A DNA stretch of 39,842 nt from Escherichia phage JeanTinguely. The stretch lies in the sequence record MZ501081. One strand, 5' to 3'. Position 1 is the first letter of the stretch. Every line of letters begins with the position of its first letter. Below are positions 4,288 to 9,476 of the stretch, piece by piece. Under the pieces are notes generated by a model. It searched no databases. It worked only from the letters and a program-made list of their open reading frames with translations, and was not told the DNA's origin. Both the position numbers and the translations under genes were made by a program.

Positions 4288-4316
4288 TTGACTTAAAGGG
4301 TCATAGGGTTTACTAT
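4288..4316 (+). promoter_or_regulatory. Host sigma70 early promoter A1
   Basis: -35 ttgact (4288-4293), 17-bp spacer, -10 tactat (4311-4316), upstream A/T tract; colinear with T7 A1. Confidence 0.7.
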
Positions 4317-4413
4317 TCATCTCGTCAACGGGACAACGGCCCAAAGCCACTCCCTGAGATACCGGAGTCAACCGGATAAGTAGGCAGCCTGTAAGCCATA
4401 CGAAAAACAGGCA

Positions 4414-4443
4414 TTGACAACACGCAGTAACATGCAGTAAGAT
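4414..4443 (+). promoter_or_regulatory. Host sigma70 early promoter A2
   Basis: -35 ttgaca (4414-4419), 18-bp spacer, -10 taagat (4438-4443). Confidence 0.7.
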
Positions 4444-4520
4444 ACACAGCGTCAATCGGTAGCACACGGTGTCTTCTAGGTGACTTAAGCGCACCACGGC
4501 ACATAAGGTGAACAAAACGG

Positions 4521-4549
4521 TTGACAACATGAAGTAAACACGGTACGAT
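4521..4549 (+). promoter_or_regulatory. Host sigma70 early promoter A3
   Basis: -35 ttgaca (4521-4526), 17-bp spacer, -10 tacgat (4544-4549). Confidence 0.7.
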
Positions 4550-4667
4550 GTACCACATGAAACGACAGTGAGTCACCACACTGAAAGGTGATGCGGTCTA
4601 ATGAAACCTGACCAAAGACGCTCTTTAACAATCTGGTAAATAGCTCTTGAGTGCATGACTAGCGGAT

Positions 4668-4703
4668 AACTCAAGGGTATCGCAAGATGCCCTTTATGAT
4701 ATC
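4668..4703 (+). promoter_or_regulatory. RNase III processing site R0.3
   Basis: aactcaagggtatcgcaagatgccctttatgat hairpin motif just upstream of gene 0.3. Confidence 0.5.
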
Positions 4704-4731
4704 CACTAACAACACTATGAGGTAACACAAG

Positions 4732-5085
4732 ATGGCTATGTCTAACATGACTTACAAAAACGTTTTCGACCACGCTTACGAAATGCTGAAAGAAAACATC
4801 CGTTATGATGACATCCGCGACACTGATGACCTGCACGATGCTATTCACATGGCTGCCGATAGCGCCGTTCCGCACTACTACAGCGACATTTTCAGCGTAA
4901 TGGCAAGTGAAGGCATTGACCTTGAGTTCGAAGACTCTGGTCTTATGCCGGACACCAAGGACGTGACCCGCATTCTACAGGCTCGCATCTATGAGCAACT
5001 CACACTCGACCTCTGGGAAGACGCTGAGGACTTACTGAACGAGTACCTTGAGGAAGTCGAGGAAGAGGAAGAGGAAGAAGAGTAA
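4732..5085 (+). CDS. 0.3: Ocr anti-restriction protein (gp0.3, DNA mimic), 117 aa
   Basis: [22 protein letters not shown]... matches T7 Ocr; highly acidic; C-terminus is a run of eight Glu. Confidence 0.95.
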
Positions 5086-5237
5086 TGACTAATAGCACGC
5101 AATACGGTCTGACCGCTCAAACTGTGCTGTTCTATAGTGACATGGTGCGCTGCGGGTTTGATTGGTCGCTCGCAATGGCACACCTTAAGGAACTGTACGA
5201 AAACAACAAGGCAATAGCTTTGGAATCTGCTGAGTGA
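5085..5237 (+). CDS. 0.4: gp0.4 homolog (FtsZ inhibitor in T7), 50 aa
   Basis: ATG overlaps the 0.3 stop (taATG); [25 protein letters not shown]... closely matches T7 gp0.4. Confidence 0.75.
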   Translation: MTNSTQYGLTAQTVLFYSDMVRCGFDWSLAMAHLKELYENNKAIALESAE

Positions 5238-5238
5238 T

Positions 5239-5276
5239 AAACTCAAGGTCGCTCCTAGCGAGTGGCCTTTATGATT
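5239..5276 (+). promoter_or_regulatory. RNase III processing site R0.5
   Basis: actcaaggtcgctcctagcgagtggcctttatgatt hairpin motif. Confidence 0.55.
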
Positions 5277-5299
5277 ATCATTCTATGAGGATTAAACGC

Positions 5300-5470
5300 A
5301 TGACGACTGGAATCTTTATGGCAACCGTTGCAGTATTCATAGCGATGGGATGGCGTAGCACCGCGTTGGAGCGCTCAAAGTTCCTTAAGCAACGTGATGC
5401 ACTACTAGAGAAGTTTGATGCTGAGGGGCGCGGTCAGGAAGCTCTGGAGGCCATAAAGTGCTATCGCTAA
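5300..5470 (+). CDS. Hypothetical small membrane protein, 56 aa (start inferred)
   Basis: RBS gagga 8 nt before ATG 5300; hydrophobic N-terminus TGIFMATVAVFIAMGW; no resemblance to T7 gp0.5/0.6 that I can recognise. Confidence 0.45.
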   Translation: MTTGIFMATVAVFIAMGWRSTALERSKFLKQRDALLEKFDAEGRGQEALEAIKCYR

Positions 5471-5655
5471 TTATCATCACTGGTTACGCTCTAATCCTAT
5501 ACGTGTTCCTTAGAGACTTCCGCAAGGGTATAAAGGTTCACAAAGCAACGCTAAGTTACTTTAAATACGGATTCCTACCACGGTTTACGGTACGTGAACA
5601 CAACGGGCGCTTTAAGGCGAACAAAGTAGGCATCTTTTACGTAGCAACTCATTAA
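5458..5655 (+). CDS. Hypothetical small membrane protein, 65 aa
   Basis: GTG start overlapping the previous stop, RBS ggagg 7 nt upstream; hydrophobic N-terminus [17 protein letters not shown]. Confidence 0.4.
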
Positions 5656-5677
5656 TCACACTTGGAGAATACATAAA

Positions 5678-6754
5678 GTGAACATCACCGACATCATGAA
5701 CGCTATCGACGCAATCAAAGCACTGCCAATCTGTGAACTTGACAAGCGCCAAGGTATGCTCATCGACTTACTGGTAGAGATGGTCAACAGCGAAACATGC
5801 GATGGAGAGCTAACCGAACTGAATCAGGCACTTGAGTTTCAAGACTGGTGGACTACCTTGAAGTGTCTCACGGCTGACGCAGGGTTCAAGATGCTCGGTA
5901 ATGGTCACTTCTCGGCTGCTTATAGCCACCCGCTGCTGCCTAACAGAGTGATTAAGGTGGGCTTTAAGAAAGAGGATTCAGGCGCAGCATACACCGCATT
6001 CTGCCGCATGTATCAGGGCCGTGCCGGTATCCCTAACGTCTACGATGTACAGCGTCACGCTGGATGCTATACGGTTGTACTCGATGCACTGAATGATTGT
6101 GAGCGTTTCAACAATGATGAACATTATAAATACGCTGAGATTGCAAGCGACATCATTGACTACAAATCAGATGAGCACGATGGGCTAACTGGGTGGGATG
6201 GCGAGTTCGTCGAGACTTGCAAGCTAATCCGCAAGTTCTTTGAGGGCATCGCTTCGTTCGACATGCACAGTGGGAACATCATGTTCGATGATAATGATGT
6301 ACCATACATTACCGACCCTGTATCGTTCTCGCAGAAGAAAGGTGGTTCGTTCAGTATTGACCCTGAGGAACTCATCAAGGAAGTCGAGGAGGTCGCACGT
6401 CAGAAGGAAATTGACCGCGCTAAGGAACGTAAAGCACGCCATGTTGGTCGATTGGAGGCACGCAGATTCAAACGTCGCAACCGCAAGGCACGTAGAGTAC
6501 ACCAAGCGAAGCGCGAGAGAATGCTTGCTGCGTGGCGAATGGCTGAACGTCAAGAACGACGTAACCATGAGAGAGCTGTAGATGTACTAGGAAGAACCGA
6601 TAACGCTATGCTCTGGGTCAACATGTTCGCTGGGGACTTTAAGGCGCTTGAGGAACGAATCGCAGCGCACTGGTGTAAAGCTGACCGAATGGCTATCGCT
6701 AACGGTCTTCCGCTTAACATCGACAAGAAACTTGACGCAATGCTAATGGGCTGA
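5678..6754 (+). CDS. 0.7: Ser/Thr protein kinase and host transcription shut-off protein (gp0.7), 358 aa
   Basis: GTG start after RBS ggaga; [28 protein letters not shown]... colinear with T7 gp0.7, including the Arg/Lys-rich C-terminal shut-off region. Confidence 0.95.
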
Positions 6755-6800
6755 TAGTCTTATCTTACAGGTCATCTGCGGGTGGCCTGAATAGATACGA
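6755..6800 (+). promoter_or_regulatory. RNase III processing site R1
   Basis: Hairpin-capable gtcatctgcgggtggcctga between 0.7 and gene 1, at the position of T7 R1. Confidence 0.4.
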
Positions 6801-6824
6801 TTCACTAACCGGAAGAGGCACTAA

Positions 6825-9476
6825 ATGAACACGATTAACATCGCTAAGAACGACTTCTCTGACATCGAACTGGCTGCTATCCCGTTCAACACTCTGGCTG
6901 ACCATTACGGTGAGCGTTTAGCTCGCGAACAGTTGGCCCTTGAGCATGAGTCTTACGAAATGGGTGAAGCACGCTTCCGCAAGATGTTTGAGCGTCAGCT
7001 TAAAGCTGGTGAGGTTGCGGATAACGCTGCCGCTAAGCCTCTCATCACTACTCTGCTCCCCAAGATGATTGCACGCATCAACGATTGGTTTGAGGAAGTG
7101 AAAGCTAAGCGCGGTAAGCGCCCGACAGCCTTCCAGTTCCTGCAAGAAATCAAGCCGGAAGCGATAGCGTACATCACCATTAAGACAACTCTGGCTTGCC
7201 TAACGAGCGTAGACAATACAACCGTTCAGGCTGTAGCAAGTGCAATCGGTCGAGCTATTGAGGACGAGGCGCGCTTTGGTCGAATCCGTGACCTTGAAGC
7301 TAAGCACTTTAAGAAAAACGTTGAGGAACAACTTAACAAGCGCGTAGGGCACGTCTACAAGAAAGCATTCATGCAGGTTGTTGAAGCGGACATGCTCTCT
7401 AAGGGTCTACTAGGTGGCGAGGCGTGGTCTTCGTGGCATAAGGAAGACTCTATTCACGTTGGGGTGCGCTGCATTGAGATGCTCATTGAGTCCACCGGAA
7501 TGGTTAGCTTACATCGTCAAAATGCTGGCGTAGTAGGGCAAGACTCTGAGACTATCGAACTTGCACCGGAATACGCTGAGGCTATCGCAACCCGTGCAGG
7601 TGCGCTGGCTGGTATCTCCCCGATGTTCCAACCTTGCGTGGTTCCTCCTAAGCCTTGGACTGGTATTACTGGTGGTGGATATTGGGCTAACGGTCGCCGT
7701 CCTCTGGCACTGGTACGTACTCATAGCAAGAAAGCACTGATGCGCTACGAAGACGTTTACATGCCTGAGGTGTACAAGGCGATTAACATTGCACAAAACA
7801 CCGCATGGAAAATCAACAAGAAAGTTCTAGCGGTCGCTAACGTAATCACCAAGTGGAAGCATTGCCCTGTAGAGGACATCCCAGCGATTGAGCGCGAAGA
7901 ACTTCCGATGAAACCGGAAGACATCGACACGAATCCTGAGGCTCTCGCCGCATGGAAACGTGCTGCTGCTGCTGTGTACCGCAAGGACAAGGCTCGTAAG
8001 TCTCGCCGTATCAGCTTAGAGTTCATGCTGGAGCAAGCCAATAAGTTCGCTAACCATAAGGCCATCTGGTTCCCTTACAACATGGACTGGCGCGGTCGTG
8101 TTTACGCTGTGTCAATGTTCAACCCGCAAGGTAACGATATGACCAAGGGTCTGCTGACGCTGGCGAAAGGTAAGCCAATCGGTAAGGAAGGTTACTACTG
8201 GTTGAAAATCCACGGTGCAAACTGTGCGGGTGTCGATAAGGTTCCGTTCCCTGAGCGCATCAAGTTCATTGAGGACAACCATGAGAACATCATGGCTTGC
8301 GCTAAGTCTCCGCTGGAGAACACTTGGTGGGCTGAGCAAGATTCTCCGTTCTGCTTCCTCGCGTTCTGCTTTGAGTATGCTGGGGTACAGCACCACGGCT
8401 TAAGCTACAACTGCTCTCTTCCGCTGGCGTTCGATGGGTCTTGCTCTGGCATTCAGCACTTCTCCGCTATGCTCCGAGATGAGGTAGGTGGTCGCGCTGT
8501 TAACCTTCTGCCTAGCGAAACCGTTCAGGACATCTACGGGATTGTCGCTAAGAAAGTCAATTTGATTCTGCAAGAAGACGTAATCAATGGAACCGACAAC
8601 GAAGTAGTTACCGTGACCGATGAGAACACTGGTGAAATCTCTGAGAAAGTCAAGCTGGGCACTAAGGCGCTGGCTGGTCAATGGCTGGCTTACGGTGTAA
8701 CACGTAGCGTGACTAAACGTTCAGTCATGACGCTGGCTTACGGGTCCAAAGAGTTCGGCTTCCGTCAACAAGTGCTGGAAGATACCATTCAGCCAGCTAT
8801 TGATTCCGGTAAAGGTCTGATGTTCACTCAACCGAATCAGGCTGCTGGATACATGGCGAAACTGATTTGGGAAGCTGTGAGCGTTACGGTGGTAGCCGCT
8901 GTGGAGGCAATGAACTGGCTCAAGTCTGCCGCTAAGCTGCTGGCTGCTGAGGTCAAAGATAAGAAGACTGGAGAGATTCTTCGCAAACGTTGCGCTGTAC
9001 ATTGGGTAACTCCTGATGGGTTCCCTGTGTGGCAGGAATACAAGAAGCCAATTCAGACTCGCTTGAACCTGATTTTCCTCGGCCAGTTCCGCTTACAGCC
9101 AACCATTAACACTAACAAGGATAGCGAGATTGATGCACACAAGCAGGAGTCCGGCATTGCTCCTAACTTTGTACACAGCCAAGACGGTAGCCATCTGCGT
9201 AAGACTGTAGTGTGGGCGCATGAGAAGTACGGAATCGAGTCTTTTGCATTGATTCACGACTCCTTCGGGACCATTCCGGCTGACGCTGCTAACCTGTTCA
9301 AAGCTGTTCGCGAAACTATGGTGGACACCTATGAGTCTTGTGATGTACTGGCTGACTTCTATGACCAGTTCGCTGACCAGTTGCATGAGTCTCAACTGGA
9401 CAAAATGCCAGCACTTCCGGCTAAAGGTAACTTGAACCTCCAAGACATCCTTAAGTCAGACTTCGCGTTTGCGTAA
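6825..9476 (+). CDS. 1: Single-subunit DNA-directed RNA polymerase (T7 RNAP), 883 aa
   Basis: 883-aa product essentially identical to T7 RNA polymerase along its whole length (MNTINIAKNDFSDIELAAIPFNTLADHYGERLAREQ...). Confidence 0.98.
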   Translation: MNTINIAKNDFSDIELAAIPFNTLADHYGERLAREQLALEHESYEMGEARFRKMFERQLKAGEVADNAAAKPLITTLLPKMIARINDWFEEVKAKRGKRPTAFQFLQEIKPEAIAYITIKTTLACLTSVDNTTVQAVASAIGRAIEDEARFGRIRDLEAKHFKKNVEEQLNKRVGHVYKKAFMQVVEADMLSKGLLGGEAWSSWHKEDSIHVGVRCIEMLIESTGMVSLHRQNAGVVGQDSETIELAPEYAEAIATRAGALAGISPMFQPCVVPPKPWTGITGGGYWANGRRPLALVRTHSKKALMRYEDVYMPEVYKAINIAQNTAWKINKKVLAVANVITKWKHCPVEDIPAIEREELPMKPEDIDTNPEALAAWKRAAAAVYRKDKARKSRRISLEFMLEQANKFANHKAIWFPYNMDWRGRVYAVSMFNPQGNDMTKGLLTLAKGKPIGKEGYYWLKIHGANCAGVDKVPFPERIKFIEDNHENIMACAKSPLENTWWAEQDSPFCFLAFCFEYAGVQHHGLSYNCSLPLAFDGSCSGIQHFSAMLRDEVGGRAVNLLPSETVQDIYGIVAKKVNLILQEDVINGTDNEVVTVTDENTGEISEKVKLGTKALAGQWLAYGVTRSVTKRSVMTLAYGSKEFGFRQQVLEDTIQPAIDSGKGLMFTQPNQAAGYMAKLIWEAVSVTVVAAVEAMNWLKSAAKLLAAEVKDKKTGEILRKRCAVHWVTPDGFPVWQEYKKPIQTRLNLIFLGQFRLQPTINTNKDSEIDAHKQESGIAPNFVHSQDGSHLRKTVVWAHEKYGIESFALIHDSFGTIPADAANLFKAVRETMVDTYESCDVLADFYDQFADQLHESQLDKMPALPAKGNLNLQDILKSDFAFA

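Follow-up and report, generated by a model that had tools for sequence, protein, structure and literature searches.

The closest described counterparts of the locus considered here are found in the early regions of phages T7 and T3. In T7, the R0.5 RNase III hairpin is followed first by gene 0.5, and gene 0.6A lies immediately upstream of gene 0.7. The T7 gp0.6A and gp0.6B proteins belong to one family (phrog_8393, Pfam PF26851), and T7 gp0.6 has been described as an inhibitor of MreB (bioRxiv 10.64898/2026.09.14.751387). In the T3 group, the genes for members of a separate family (phrog_2385) belong to the early region and immediately precede that of the kinase or the RNA polymerase. This T3-type gene 0.6 family includes gp0.6/0.6A of T3, the gene 0.6 products of phiYeO3-12 and AP5, gp0.6A of K11, BA14 and phiSG-JL2, and gp0.37 of K1F. 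Few early accessory proteins of enterobacterial T7-like phages are as well conserved as its members. A transmembrane domain has been reported for the AP5 protein (PMC4283147). A further family, phrog_25811, is represented by gp3 of Citrobacter phage SH2 and by the protein UNA05181 of Pantoea phage F2M1C; the genes of these proteins lie directly upstream of a gene 0.6 homologue and overlap it. A search of one collection of articles found no function for T3-type gp0.6 or for genes 10 and 11 of Bas64.

Escherichia phage JeanTinguely (Bas64; sequence record MZ501081) carries two overlapping open reading frames, here called ORF-A and ORF-B, between gene 0.4 and the gene 0.7 kinase, 3' of a conserved R0.5 hairpin. 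Positions are those of the window, that is, the whole stretch of 39,842 nucleotides that was analyzed. The features of the locus are as follows.

5085..5237, plus strand: gene 0.4 (50 aa), conserved flank on the left, marking where the 0.3-0.4 mRNA ends; matches phrog_7202 with E = 8.5e-34
5232..5283, plus strand: R0.5 RNase III processing hairpin, overlapping the stop codon of gene 0.4; marks the left boundary of the exchanged cassette
5287..5290, plus strand: Shine-Dalgarno sequence GAGG for ORF-A, 9 nt 5' of the ATG at 5300, read from the sequence
5300..5470, plus strand: ORF-A (bas64_0010, phrog_25811), 56 aa; predicted N-terminal transmembrane helix, then a predicted cytoplasmic helix-loop-helix with the motif D-x-EGRG-x-E
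5446..5450, plus strand: Shine-Dalgarno sequence GGAGG for ORF-B, 7 nt upstream of the GTG and inside the 3' end of ORF-A
5458..5655, plus strand: ORF-B (bas64_0011, phrog_2385), 65 aa, GTG start; variable, predicted N-terminal transmembrane anchor (about residues 2-18), then a basic C-terminal domain
5664..5680, plus strand: Shine-Dalgarno sequence GGAG and GTG initiation codon of gene 0.7, at which the cassette ends on the right and T7 homology begins again
5678..6754, plus strand: gene 0.7 (protein kinase), conserved flank on the right; 92% amino acid and 90% DNA identity to T7

On both sides of the two ORFs the genome closely follows T7. DNA identity to T7 is 89% in gene 0.3, 88% in gene 0.4, 89% in the R0.5 region and 90% in gene 0.7, and the amino acid identities are 94% for Ocr, 90% for gp0.4 and 92% for gp0.7. 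The hairpin has a folding energy of -24.7 kcal/mol (z = -3.4), which was equalled by none of 200 shuffled sequences; its core has the same letters in T7, and the T7.1 record labels the corresponding sequence 'RSL_R0.5, putative RNaseIII cut site'. Between 5292 and 5677, the identity to T7 DNA is 45%, which is the level of unrelated sequence. The initial annotation had described T7-like flanks and a T7-like hairpin around two small genes that stand in place of T7 0.5/0.6 in the class I host-takeover region, and this description holds, as do its coordinates (each ORF comprises the stated 56 or 65 codons and a stop codon) and its GTG start of ORF-B behind a GGAGG ribosome binding site. Judged by sequence comparison, T7 genes 0.5, 0.6A and 0.6B have been replaced 3' of R0.5 by members of phrog_25811 and of the T3-type gene 0.6 family.

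By analogy with T7, a single mRNA processed by RNase III would carry ORF-A, ORF-B and gene 0.7. A scan of positions 4300-7000 for sigma-70 promoters and terminators gave site counts not above those of shuffled sequences. Inside the interval, the scan reported a single site, which resembles a terminator, lies on the minus strand (5261-5249) within the R0.5 hairpin and is attributed to the hairpin itself. ORF-A and ORF-B overlap by 13 nt, and the location of the ORF-B Shine-Dalgarno sequence within the 3' end of ORF-A suggests that their translation is coupled. A divergent metagenomic relative (L012) retains both the GGAGG...GTG arrangement and the 13-nt overlap. The stop codon of ORF-B is separated from the start of gene 0.7 by 22 nt.

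ORF-B is a member of the T3-type gene 0.6 family. A PHROG scan returned phrog_2385 only, with E = 3.2e-28 and residues 1-65 aligned to profile positions 7-66 of 70. The identity is 68% to the T3 protein, 68% to the N-terminal part of the phiYeO3-12 '0.6B' protein, 71% to K11 gp0.6A, 65-80% to most phrog_2385 members and 48% to K1F gp0.37. Homologues were found with tblastn in about 790 phage records, the hosts of which include Klebsiella, Escherichia, Salmonella, Yersinia, Pectobacterium, Erwinia, Enterobacter, Citrobacter and others, and those of T3, K11, K1F, LL2 and SH2 occupy the same genomic position as ORF-B. The family alignment has 17 invariant columns, all of which ORF-B carries. Sixteen of them are located in residues 20-64, and the transmembrane part varies. 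The nearly invariant C-terminal domain has a net charge of +9 and contains the conserved basic core RDF-x-KG ... PRFTVR (followed by 12 residues not spelled out here) ... ATH. In the AlphaFold2 (AF2) model of ORF-B (pLDDT 79), residues 2-28 form a helix and three strands fall within residues 42-62. A fold search of BFVD gave one significant match, the 'putative 0.6B protein' of phiYeO3-12 (E = 1.3e-5), which belongs to the same family. No significant match was found in the PDB; the best, AcrIF9, has E = 0.86 over 27 columns and was rejected as a fold relative. The sequences of solved structures gave nothing even at E <= 10, and there was no match to ORF-B in Pfam-A, NCBIfam or PADLOC. An exhaustive profile search returned only 12 small clusters of the same architecture, with no informative domain fusions.

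ORF-A matches the phrog_25811 profile with E = 1e-8 (residues 5-53 on profile positions 3-50 of 52). It shares the architecture, the G-W boundary and the DAEGRG motif of the SH2 and F2M1C proteins, although its identity to the T3-like members of the family is only about 40%. Homologues are 56-58 aa long, and their starts match the ATG at 5300. ORF-A is found in 48 phage records, and in 43 of the 48 an ORF-B homologue lies directly downstream. The AF2 model (pLDDT 72) has helices at residues 2-19, 22-42 and 45-55. Pfam-A, NCBIfam and PADLOC contain no match to ORF-A. Candidate relationships to Fpg/MutM and to EF-hand proteins, obtained with the sequences of solved structures, were insignificant (E >= 0.17); the EF-hand matches run over the DAEGRG loop, which lacks the EF-hand calcium ligands, and this reading was therefore rejected. 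The deposited protein (QXV80859.1, hypothetical protein bas64_0010) has 78 aa and begins at a GTG at 5234; translation from there would cross the R0.5 hairpin, and the start is probably set too far upstream.

The initial annotation had considered the two ORFs to be candidates for novel factors. This is not the case: both exact proteins are already public, ORF-B as QXV80860.1 (hypothetical protein bas64_0011), and the pair consists of catalogued genes, namely the T3-type gene 0.6 and a partner that sometimes lies upstream of it.

As judged from their substitution patterns, both ORFs are real genes under purifying selection and not chance open reading frames, since the proportion of synonymous differences (pS) is far above that of nonsynonymous ones (pN) in the ORF frame only. 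For ORF-B, pS is 0.69-0.85 and pN 0.18-0.26 against T3, K11 and SH2, an asymmetry that disappears in the other two frames. For ORF-A, dN/dS is about 0.35 against the 59%-identical homologue of L012. That one or both ORFs are non-functional, either remnants or chance frames, is thus barely conceivable. Both are indeed very short, and the comparison of ORF-A with its close relatives is uninformative on selection as it involves only 3-10 substitutions, but the selection is frame-specific, the Shine-Dalgarno sequences and the overlap are conserved, and hundreds of homologues have the same length and position.

The diverged-orthologue explanation, in which ORF-A and ORF-B descend from the same ancestors as T7 gp0.5 and gp0.6A and replace nothing, agrees with the position and order of the genes. 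ORF-A, like T7 gp0.5 (phrog_16572), is a small hydrophobic protein encoded first after R0.5 in the same Shine-Dalgarno context ('tatgagg' is found at the same place ahead of T7 gene 0.5). ORF-B, like gp0.6A, is small and very basic (+9 against +7) and lies in the slot immediately upstream of gene 0.7. Furthermore, the last 63 nt of T7 0.6A and ORF-B have 33 bases in common (of 20000 63-mers drawn at random from the window, not one did as well); the two proteins share the ending ...TH, and BLASTP finds a weak C-terminal match of 13 residues (E = 0.035). Most gp0.6A homologues, however, lack the T7 tail and end at ...INKI. The shared tail therefore looks like a recombination scar in T7, and the sequences are compatible with such a possible event rather than with common descent of the whole gene.

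The remaining evidence speaks against orthology. T7 gp0.5 is hydrophobic and glycine-rich over all 47 residues, whereas in ORF-A a single short hydrophobic helix precedes a charged helix-loop-helix, and the two proteins give no BLASTP match even at E <= 100. T7 gp0.6A has neither a transmembrane nor a hydrophobic segment, unlike ORF-B, and its core, VMPIH..G.TVCTPD...RLKRE, is not present in ORF-B. Precomputed Pfam assignments place PF26851 on gp0.6A members and on none of the ORF-B relatives. The profile-profile comparison (hhalign) of the two families gave a probability of 0.3% and E = 0.19 over 8 columns in the non-conserved tail, so that homology is rejected at the family level. Diverged orthology is accordingly very improbable and largely refuted. 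The observation of the initial annotation that neither ORF resembles T7 gp0.5, gp0.6A or gp0.6B agrees with these results, as BLASTP detects nothing significant and the PHROG families differ. It had also named clear homology to the T7 0.5/0.6 products as a finding that would overturn its reading. Such a connection exists in name, through the T3-group label gp0.6/gp0.6A that annotators have given to ORF-B homologues, but these proteins are not homologous to T7 gp0.6A.

By their hydropathy and the helices of the AF2 models, both products resemble membrane proteins, and the hydrophobic N-termini reported earlier are present in both: the Kyte-Doolittle maximum over 15 residues is 2.0 for ORF-A, the hydrophobic stretch of which is short (about 16 residues), and 2.55 for ORF-B. 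Basic residues directly follow the hydrophobic segment in the sequence and in the alignment. In LL2, the ORF-B homologue is annotated with a transmembrane domain in an N-out/C-in orientation. Sequence and models together predict that both are single-pass inner-membrane proteins with the N-terminus outside and the C-terminus inside, leaving only 1-4 residues in the periplasm. A holin function was rejected for both ORFs because holin genes belong to a late lysis cassette, beside the endolysin or spanin genes, whereas the genes found here are early ones flanked by 0.4 and 0.7; in AP5, a T3-like phage, the holin is assigned to gene 17.5 and not to gene 0.6 (PMC4283147).

By combining these data, it is possible to propose a role for the cassette. 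We assign a probability of about 55% to the reading in which the interval is an exchanged early host-takeover cassette and ORF-B is a membrane-tethered binder of a conserved target at the cytoplasmic face. ORF-A and ORF-B would be made by coupled translation from the early processed mRNA that also encodes the 0.7 kinase. The transmembrane segment of ORF-B, because its sequence varies, would be only an anchor for a nearly invariant, strongly basic alpha/beta mini-domain (about 45 residues), which it would keep on the cytoplasmic side of the inner membrane. This domain would bind, and most likely inhibit, a target that is conserved across Enterobacterales, with ORF-A acting as a facultative partner or modulator. 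Homology gave no pointer to a target of ORF-B in Pfam-A, NCBIfam, PADLOC or the PDB. The most likely class of target would, speculatively, be the membrane-proximal machinery of cell growth or the cytoskeleton, since ORF-B occupies the same slot as gp0.6A, the reported MreB inhibitor, the two almost never co-occur, and gp0.4, which has been described as acting on FtsZ, is encoded next to this slot. From this we infer a cytoskeletal or envelope target. A more specific version, in which the two proteins form a translationally coupled module on the cytoplasmic side of the inner membrane and ORF-B, tethered there, is a non-homologous functional replacement of gp0.6A that inhibits a conserved envelope or cytoskeleton protein of enterobacteria (MreB/RodZ or the divisome) or a membrane-bound defence sensor, is tentative and rather unlikely. 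If true, it would provide a function for a family that is present in about 800 sequenced phages and has lacked one for more than 20 years.

Two other roles compete with that of a host-target binder. ORF-B, with or without ORF-A, might neutralize a membrane-associated anti-phage system early in infection, such as an abortive-infection effector or an envelope sensor. The neighboring early genes all touch host defence, as Ocr is annotated as an anti-restriction protein, gp0.4 triggers CapRel (PMC13423816) and the T7 kinase, according to one report, disarms defences (PMC13645617). The distribution of the cassette is also patchy, which is typical of accessory counter-defence genes. The C-terminal domain of ORF-B, however, is nearly invariant over at least 10 host genera that have very different defence repertoires, and a conserved housekeeping target therefore fits better than a defence target. 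In addition, the peptide motifs of both ORFs are absent from the supplements of two phage accessory-gene screens, and PADLOC, the models of which represent defence and not anti-defence proteins, gave no match. A role in counter-defence is thus a secondary, doubtful option.

Alternatively, in line with the superinfection-related role that the initial annotation had named beside host interaction, the two proteins might block the entry of the genome of a second T7-like phage. Both are predicted to reside in the inner membrane, in which the channel of the T7 ejectosome has to form, and early expression would suit superinfection exclusion. With the C-terminus inside and the conserved parts predicted to be cytoplasmic, a binder of a host target fits better than a periplasmic entry blocker. 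No similarity to a characterized exclusion protein was detected in Pfam-A, the PHROG annotations, the PDB or BFVD, and no supporting literature was found, which makes exclusion distinctly improbable.

The interval is an exchanged accessory cassette in the class I early region, and, since both genes are already catalogued in many relatives, it is a case of ordinary early-region mosaicism. ORF-A and ORF-B recur together, as one cassette, among T7-like and T3-like phages, and the two slots can also be exchanged separately, with breakpoints at conserved regulatory sequences. Bas65 combines ORF-A with a T7-type 0.6A; the breakpoints are at window positions 5480 and 5660, and the identity to the window is 100% over 5660-5743 despite the different gene upstream. 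In Bas103, an extra gene is inserted between two copies of the R0.5 hairpin. ORF-B is far more common than the pair (about 790 records against 43), and because it usually occurs without ORF-A, any partnership of the two would be optional. ORF-B is present in 790 records and T7 gp0.6A in 213, the union being 988, so that the two are almost never found in one genome. This exclusivity is confounded by phylogeny, as the genera differ wholesale, and it may reflect lineage rather than function.

The main value of these results lies in annotation and bookkeeping, including the probably wrong start of the deposited bas64_0010. The locus also illustrates gene-by-gene mosaicism clearly; its breakpoints fall on conserved regulatory sequences, the R0.5 hairpin and the ribosome-binding site before gene 0.7. 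Bas64 (ORF-A and ORF-B), Bas65 (ORF-A and 0.6A) and T7 (0.5 and 0.6A) constitute a natural allelic series at this slot.

In comparison with the T3 group, the JeanTinguely cassette differs in its details and in its genomic setting. In SH2, the phrog_25811 gene overlaps the downstream gene by 4 nt (ATGA), whereas the overlap here is 13 nt and the downstream gene starts with GTG. In phiYeO3-12 and phiSG-JL2, a '0.6B' product is annotated as a frameshift fusion into gene 0.65. JeanTinguely has no gene 0.65 homologue or other open frame at 5655-5678, which makes such a fusion impossible. The 0.6B form is optional in the T3-type family, and K11 and SH2 are likewise without one. The backbone around ORF-B, with its ocr and gene 0.4, is of the T7 type (Teseptimavirus) and not of the T3 type with the SAM hydrolase.

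Between gene 0.4 and the 0.7 protein kinase, Escherichia phage JeanTinguely (Bas64 of the BASEL collection; MZ501081, PMC11564622), a T7-like phage whose complete genome of 39,842 bp makes up the window, carries an exchanged cassette of two conserved coding genes, ORF-A and ORF-B, with conserved coupling signals. The initial annotation had described them as two membrane-type ORFs replacing T7 0.5/0.6. This observation is correct, as are its coordinates throughout (56 aa for ORF-A; 65 aa, GTG 5458 and GGAGG 5446-5450 for ORF-B), and its caution about T7 0.5/0.6 was justified. The locus is laid out as follows.

Features of the early region
4732-5085, ocr (gene 0.3)
5085-5237, gene 0.4
5232-5283, RNase III hairpin R0.5, core the same as in T7
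5300-5470, ORF-A, 56 aa
5458-5655, ORF-B, 65 aa, GTG 5458, GGAGG 5446-5450
5678-6754, 0.7 kinase
6825-9476, gene 1, RNA polymerase

With V01146 as the T7 reference, amino-acid identity is 94% for Ocr, 90% for gp0.4 and 92% for gp0.7, and the flanking DNA is 88-90% identical. The hairpin at 5232-5283 (-24.7 kcal/mol, z = -3.4 against shuffles) is R0.5, the RNase III site known from T7, with an identical core sequence; the record of engineered T7.1 labels the matching stretch as the R0.5 cut site. T7 homology ends at about 5291, just past the 'tatgagg' ribosome-binding site, and is regained at the 0.7 start codon. The 386 nt in between align with the T7 0.5-0.6 region at 45% identity, the level of unrelated sequences. 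The kinase start at 5678 is GTG, likewise in Bas103, Bas104 and Bas65, and ATG in T7. Compared with T7 the record is a circular permutation, with the start of gene 0.3 at 4732 (925 in T7). Ahead of ocr, where T7 has promoters A2 and A3, are early promoter-like sites at 4414-4443 and 4521-4549.

Substitution patterns show that ORF-A and ORF-B are genes with conserved coding. For ORF-B compared with T3, K11, SH2 and F2M1C, pS is 0.67-0.85 (near saturation) and pN is 0.18-0.27, with dN/dS of ~0.16-0.20 in the comparisons where it is computable; the asymmetry is lost or reversed in the other two frames. ORF-A and its 59% identical homologue on L012, a metagenomic contig of a divergent T7-like phage, differ by a dS of 0.98 and a dN of 0.34. 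ATG 5300 appears to be the best-placed start of ORF-A, because it has GAGG 9 nt before it, homologues (56-58 aa) begin there, and reading from GTG 5234 crosses the RNase III hairpin. The deposited bas64_0010, to which the ORF-A product is 100% identical, has 78 aa and runs from GTG 5234, inside the gene 0.4 stop region, through R0.5. A third annotated start (ATG 5285, 61 aa; Bas103 and Bas104) is without a Shine-Dalgarno sequence.

To judge from their sequences, the two genes are not T7 0.5/0.6 in disguise. BLASTP of both against T7 gp0.4, 0.5, 0.6A, 0.6B and 0.7 gave no significant match. The PHROG families differ: phrog_16572 for T7 gp0.5 and phrog_8393 for gp0.6A, versus phrog_25811 (E = 1e-8) for ORF-A and phrog_2385 (E = 3e-28) for ORF-B. 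Precomputed Pfam assignments place PF26851 on relatives of T7 gp0.6A and on none of those of ORF-B. The sole likeness between ORF-B and T7 gp0.6A resides in the last 13 residues (T7: KINKIGSGYDRTH), and both proteins end ...TH. The last 21 codons of 0.6A (V01146, 936-998) share 33 of 63 bases with window 5593-5655, a value not reached once among 20000 random 63-mers drawn from it. Most gp0.6A homologues stop at ...INKI and lack this tail, so that it is possibly an old recombination scar in T7 itself, left by a crossover of the two types of gene, rather than a sign of common descent. Alignments of ORF-B (48 sequences) and gp0.6A (31 sequences) matched in hhalign with a probability of only 0.3%.

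The cassette proteins are already public, in catalogued families. ORF-B is identical to bas64_0011 (QXV80860.1) and is the gene 0.6 or 0.6A of the T3-group annotators. Homologues were found by tblastn in 790 of 50,697 phage records, chiefly from phages of Klebsiella, Escherichia and Salmonella, but also of Yersinia, Pectobacterium, Erwinia, Enterobacter, Citrobacter and others. They include T3 1429-1626, K11 gp0.6A, K1F gp0.37 and the LL2 'putative transmembrane protein', all in the early region. Gene 0.6 of phage AP5 is listed as a 67-aa protein with a pI of 10.5 and a transmembrane domain (PMC4283147). A small membrane protein precedes the ORF-B slot in T7, Bas64 and K1F, and not in T3 and K11; in K1F (NC_007636, 1324-1692) it is gp0.36, fully hydrophobic and 55 aa long, whose sequence, compared by eye, does not obviously resemble ORF-A or T7 gp0.5.

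ORF-A is rarer (48 records), and in 43 of these it is immediately followed, in a different frame, by a homologue of ORF-B, as in Citrobacter phage SH2 (gp3/gp4) and Pantoea phage F2M1C. The full cassette occurs inside the genus of T7 in Bas103, Bas104, JB01 and SYGE1. The 13-nt overlap of the two genes and the GTG start are both kept in L012, which is T7-like without the kinase. L012 (394-3635) and a similar contig, L013, both lack the 0.7 kinase: ocr, gene 0.4, ORF-A and ORF-B are followed by an acidic, unrelated ORF of 65 aa, after which comes the RNA polymerase gene. The ocr gene call of L012 is only 79 aa.

Both proteins begin with a hydrophobic stretch (residues 3-18 in ORF-A, 2-18 in ORF-B; Kyte-Doolittle 15-residue maxima 2.0 and 2.55). 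Because basic residues follow it directly (W-R-S...R-S-K in ORF-A), an N-out/C-in topology is predicted by the positive-inside rule; the LL2 annotators give this topology for their homologue. ORF-B has a net charge of +9, and 16 of its 17 invariant columns in a 66-sequence alignment fall within residues 20-64, the hydrophobic part being variable. Its AF2 model (pLDDT 79, pTM 0.56) has a helix (2-28) and a three-stranded beta-meander (42-62). In a viral structure library the model has a single significant neighbor, the phiYeO3-12 'Putative 0.6B protein' (E = 1.3e-5, 68% identity); a PDB fold search gave nothing significant (best E = 0.86), and the PDB sequence search, Pfam, NCBIfam and PADLOC gave no match. 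Exhaustive HMMER over 1.84 billion representative proteins returned only 12 clusters, of 32-93 aa, all with the ORF-B architecture and without domain fusions. ORF-A is modeled as helices 2-19, 22-42 and 45-55 (pLDDT 72), with a conserved loop D-x-EGRG-x-E; its EF-hand likeness was dismissed, the matches being weak and not significant (E >= 0.24).

The two slots have been exchanged one by one, with breakpoints at conserved regulatory sequences. In Bas65 (JacobBurckhardt; MZ501078, 1450-1864) ORF-A is followed by a 45-aa T7-type gp0.6A in place of ORF-B. Its identity to the window is 94% over 5184-5480 and 100% over 5660-5743, the breakpoints being 5480 (~10 nt past the ORF-A stop) and 5660 (the GGAG ahead of gene 0.7). 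PGX1 likewise has ORF-A followed by a T7-type gp0.6A. In Bas103 (PQ850602, 1501-1850) two R0.5 hairpin copies enclose an additional gene (66 aa) of the 13a gp0.45/SH2 gp2/LL2_002 family; the RNase III site appears to be a recombination linker for cassette insertion. The annotated 44-aa 'gp0.7' of 13a (EU734174, 1516-1650) consists of ORF-A codons 1-19 and the last ~25 kinase codons, and thus the ancestor of 13a had ORF-A. Window 5233-5355 is joined there to 6671-6864, the result of a ~1.3-kb deletion whose junction has a 5-nt overlap. Homologues of T7 gp0.6A, for which MreB inhibition has been described (bioRxiv 10.64898/2026.09.14.751387), are also present in phi92-like and Aeromonas phages of 124-219 kb (phi92, PHB05, Aeromonas phage AsFcp_2 and others), at 51-72% identity over ~40 residues among the matches listed, so that the reach of this gene extends well beyond T7 and its relatives. 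ORF-B occurs in 790 records and T7-type gp0.6A in 213 (union 988), with both in at most ~15 and possibly none, the thresholds being slightly different. Such near mutual exclusivity is only suggestive because genera differ wholesale.

In T7, genes 0.5, 0.6 and 0.7 are translated from RNase III-processed early mRNA. ORF-A and ORF-B would be translated from the processed '0.7' early mRNA and would insert into the inner membrane N-out/C-in. The sequence-tolerant anchor of ORF-B might then keep its near-invariant basic mini-domain on the cytoplasmic side of the membrane, and this domain may bind a target there that is conserved across Enterobacterales. Speculatively, this target belongs to the membrane-proximal growth or cytoskeleton machinery, because ORF-B sits in the slot of gp0.6A, and this slot adjoins gp0.4, a protein that complexes with FtsZ (PMC13423816). 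Anti-defense activity against a membrane-linked system is an unlikely alternative, at perhaps one chance in several. Superinfection exclusion is more doubtful still, as the conserved parts are predicted to be cytoplasmic. Divergent orthology to T7 0.5/0.6 and a lack of function of the ORFs are both highly improbable. This exchanged pair of conserved genes typifies the early-region mosaicism of Studiervirinae, and, as Bas65 combines ORF-A with a T7-type gp0.6A, Bas64, Bas65 and T7 make up a natural allelic series at the two slots.
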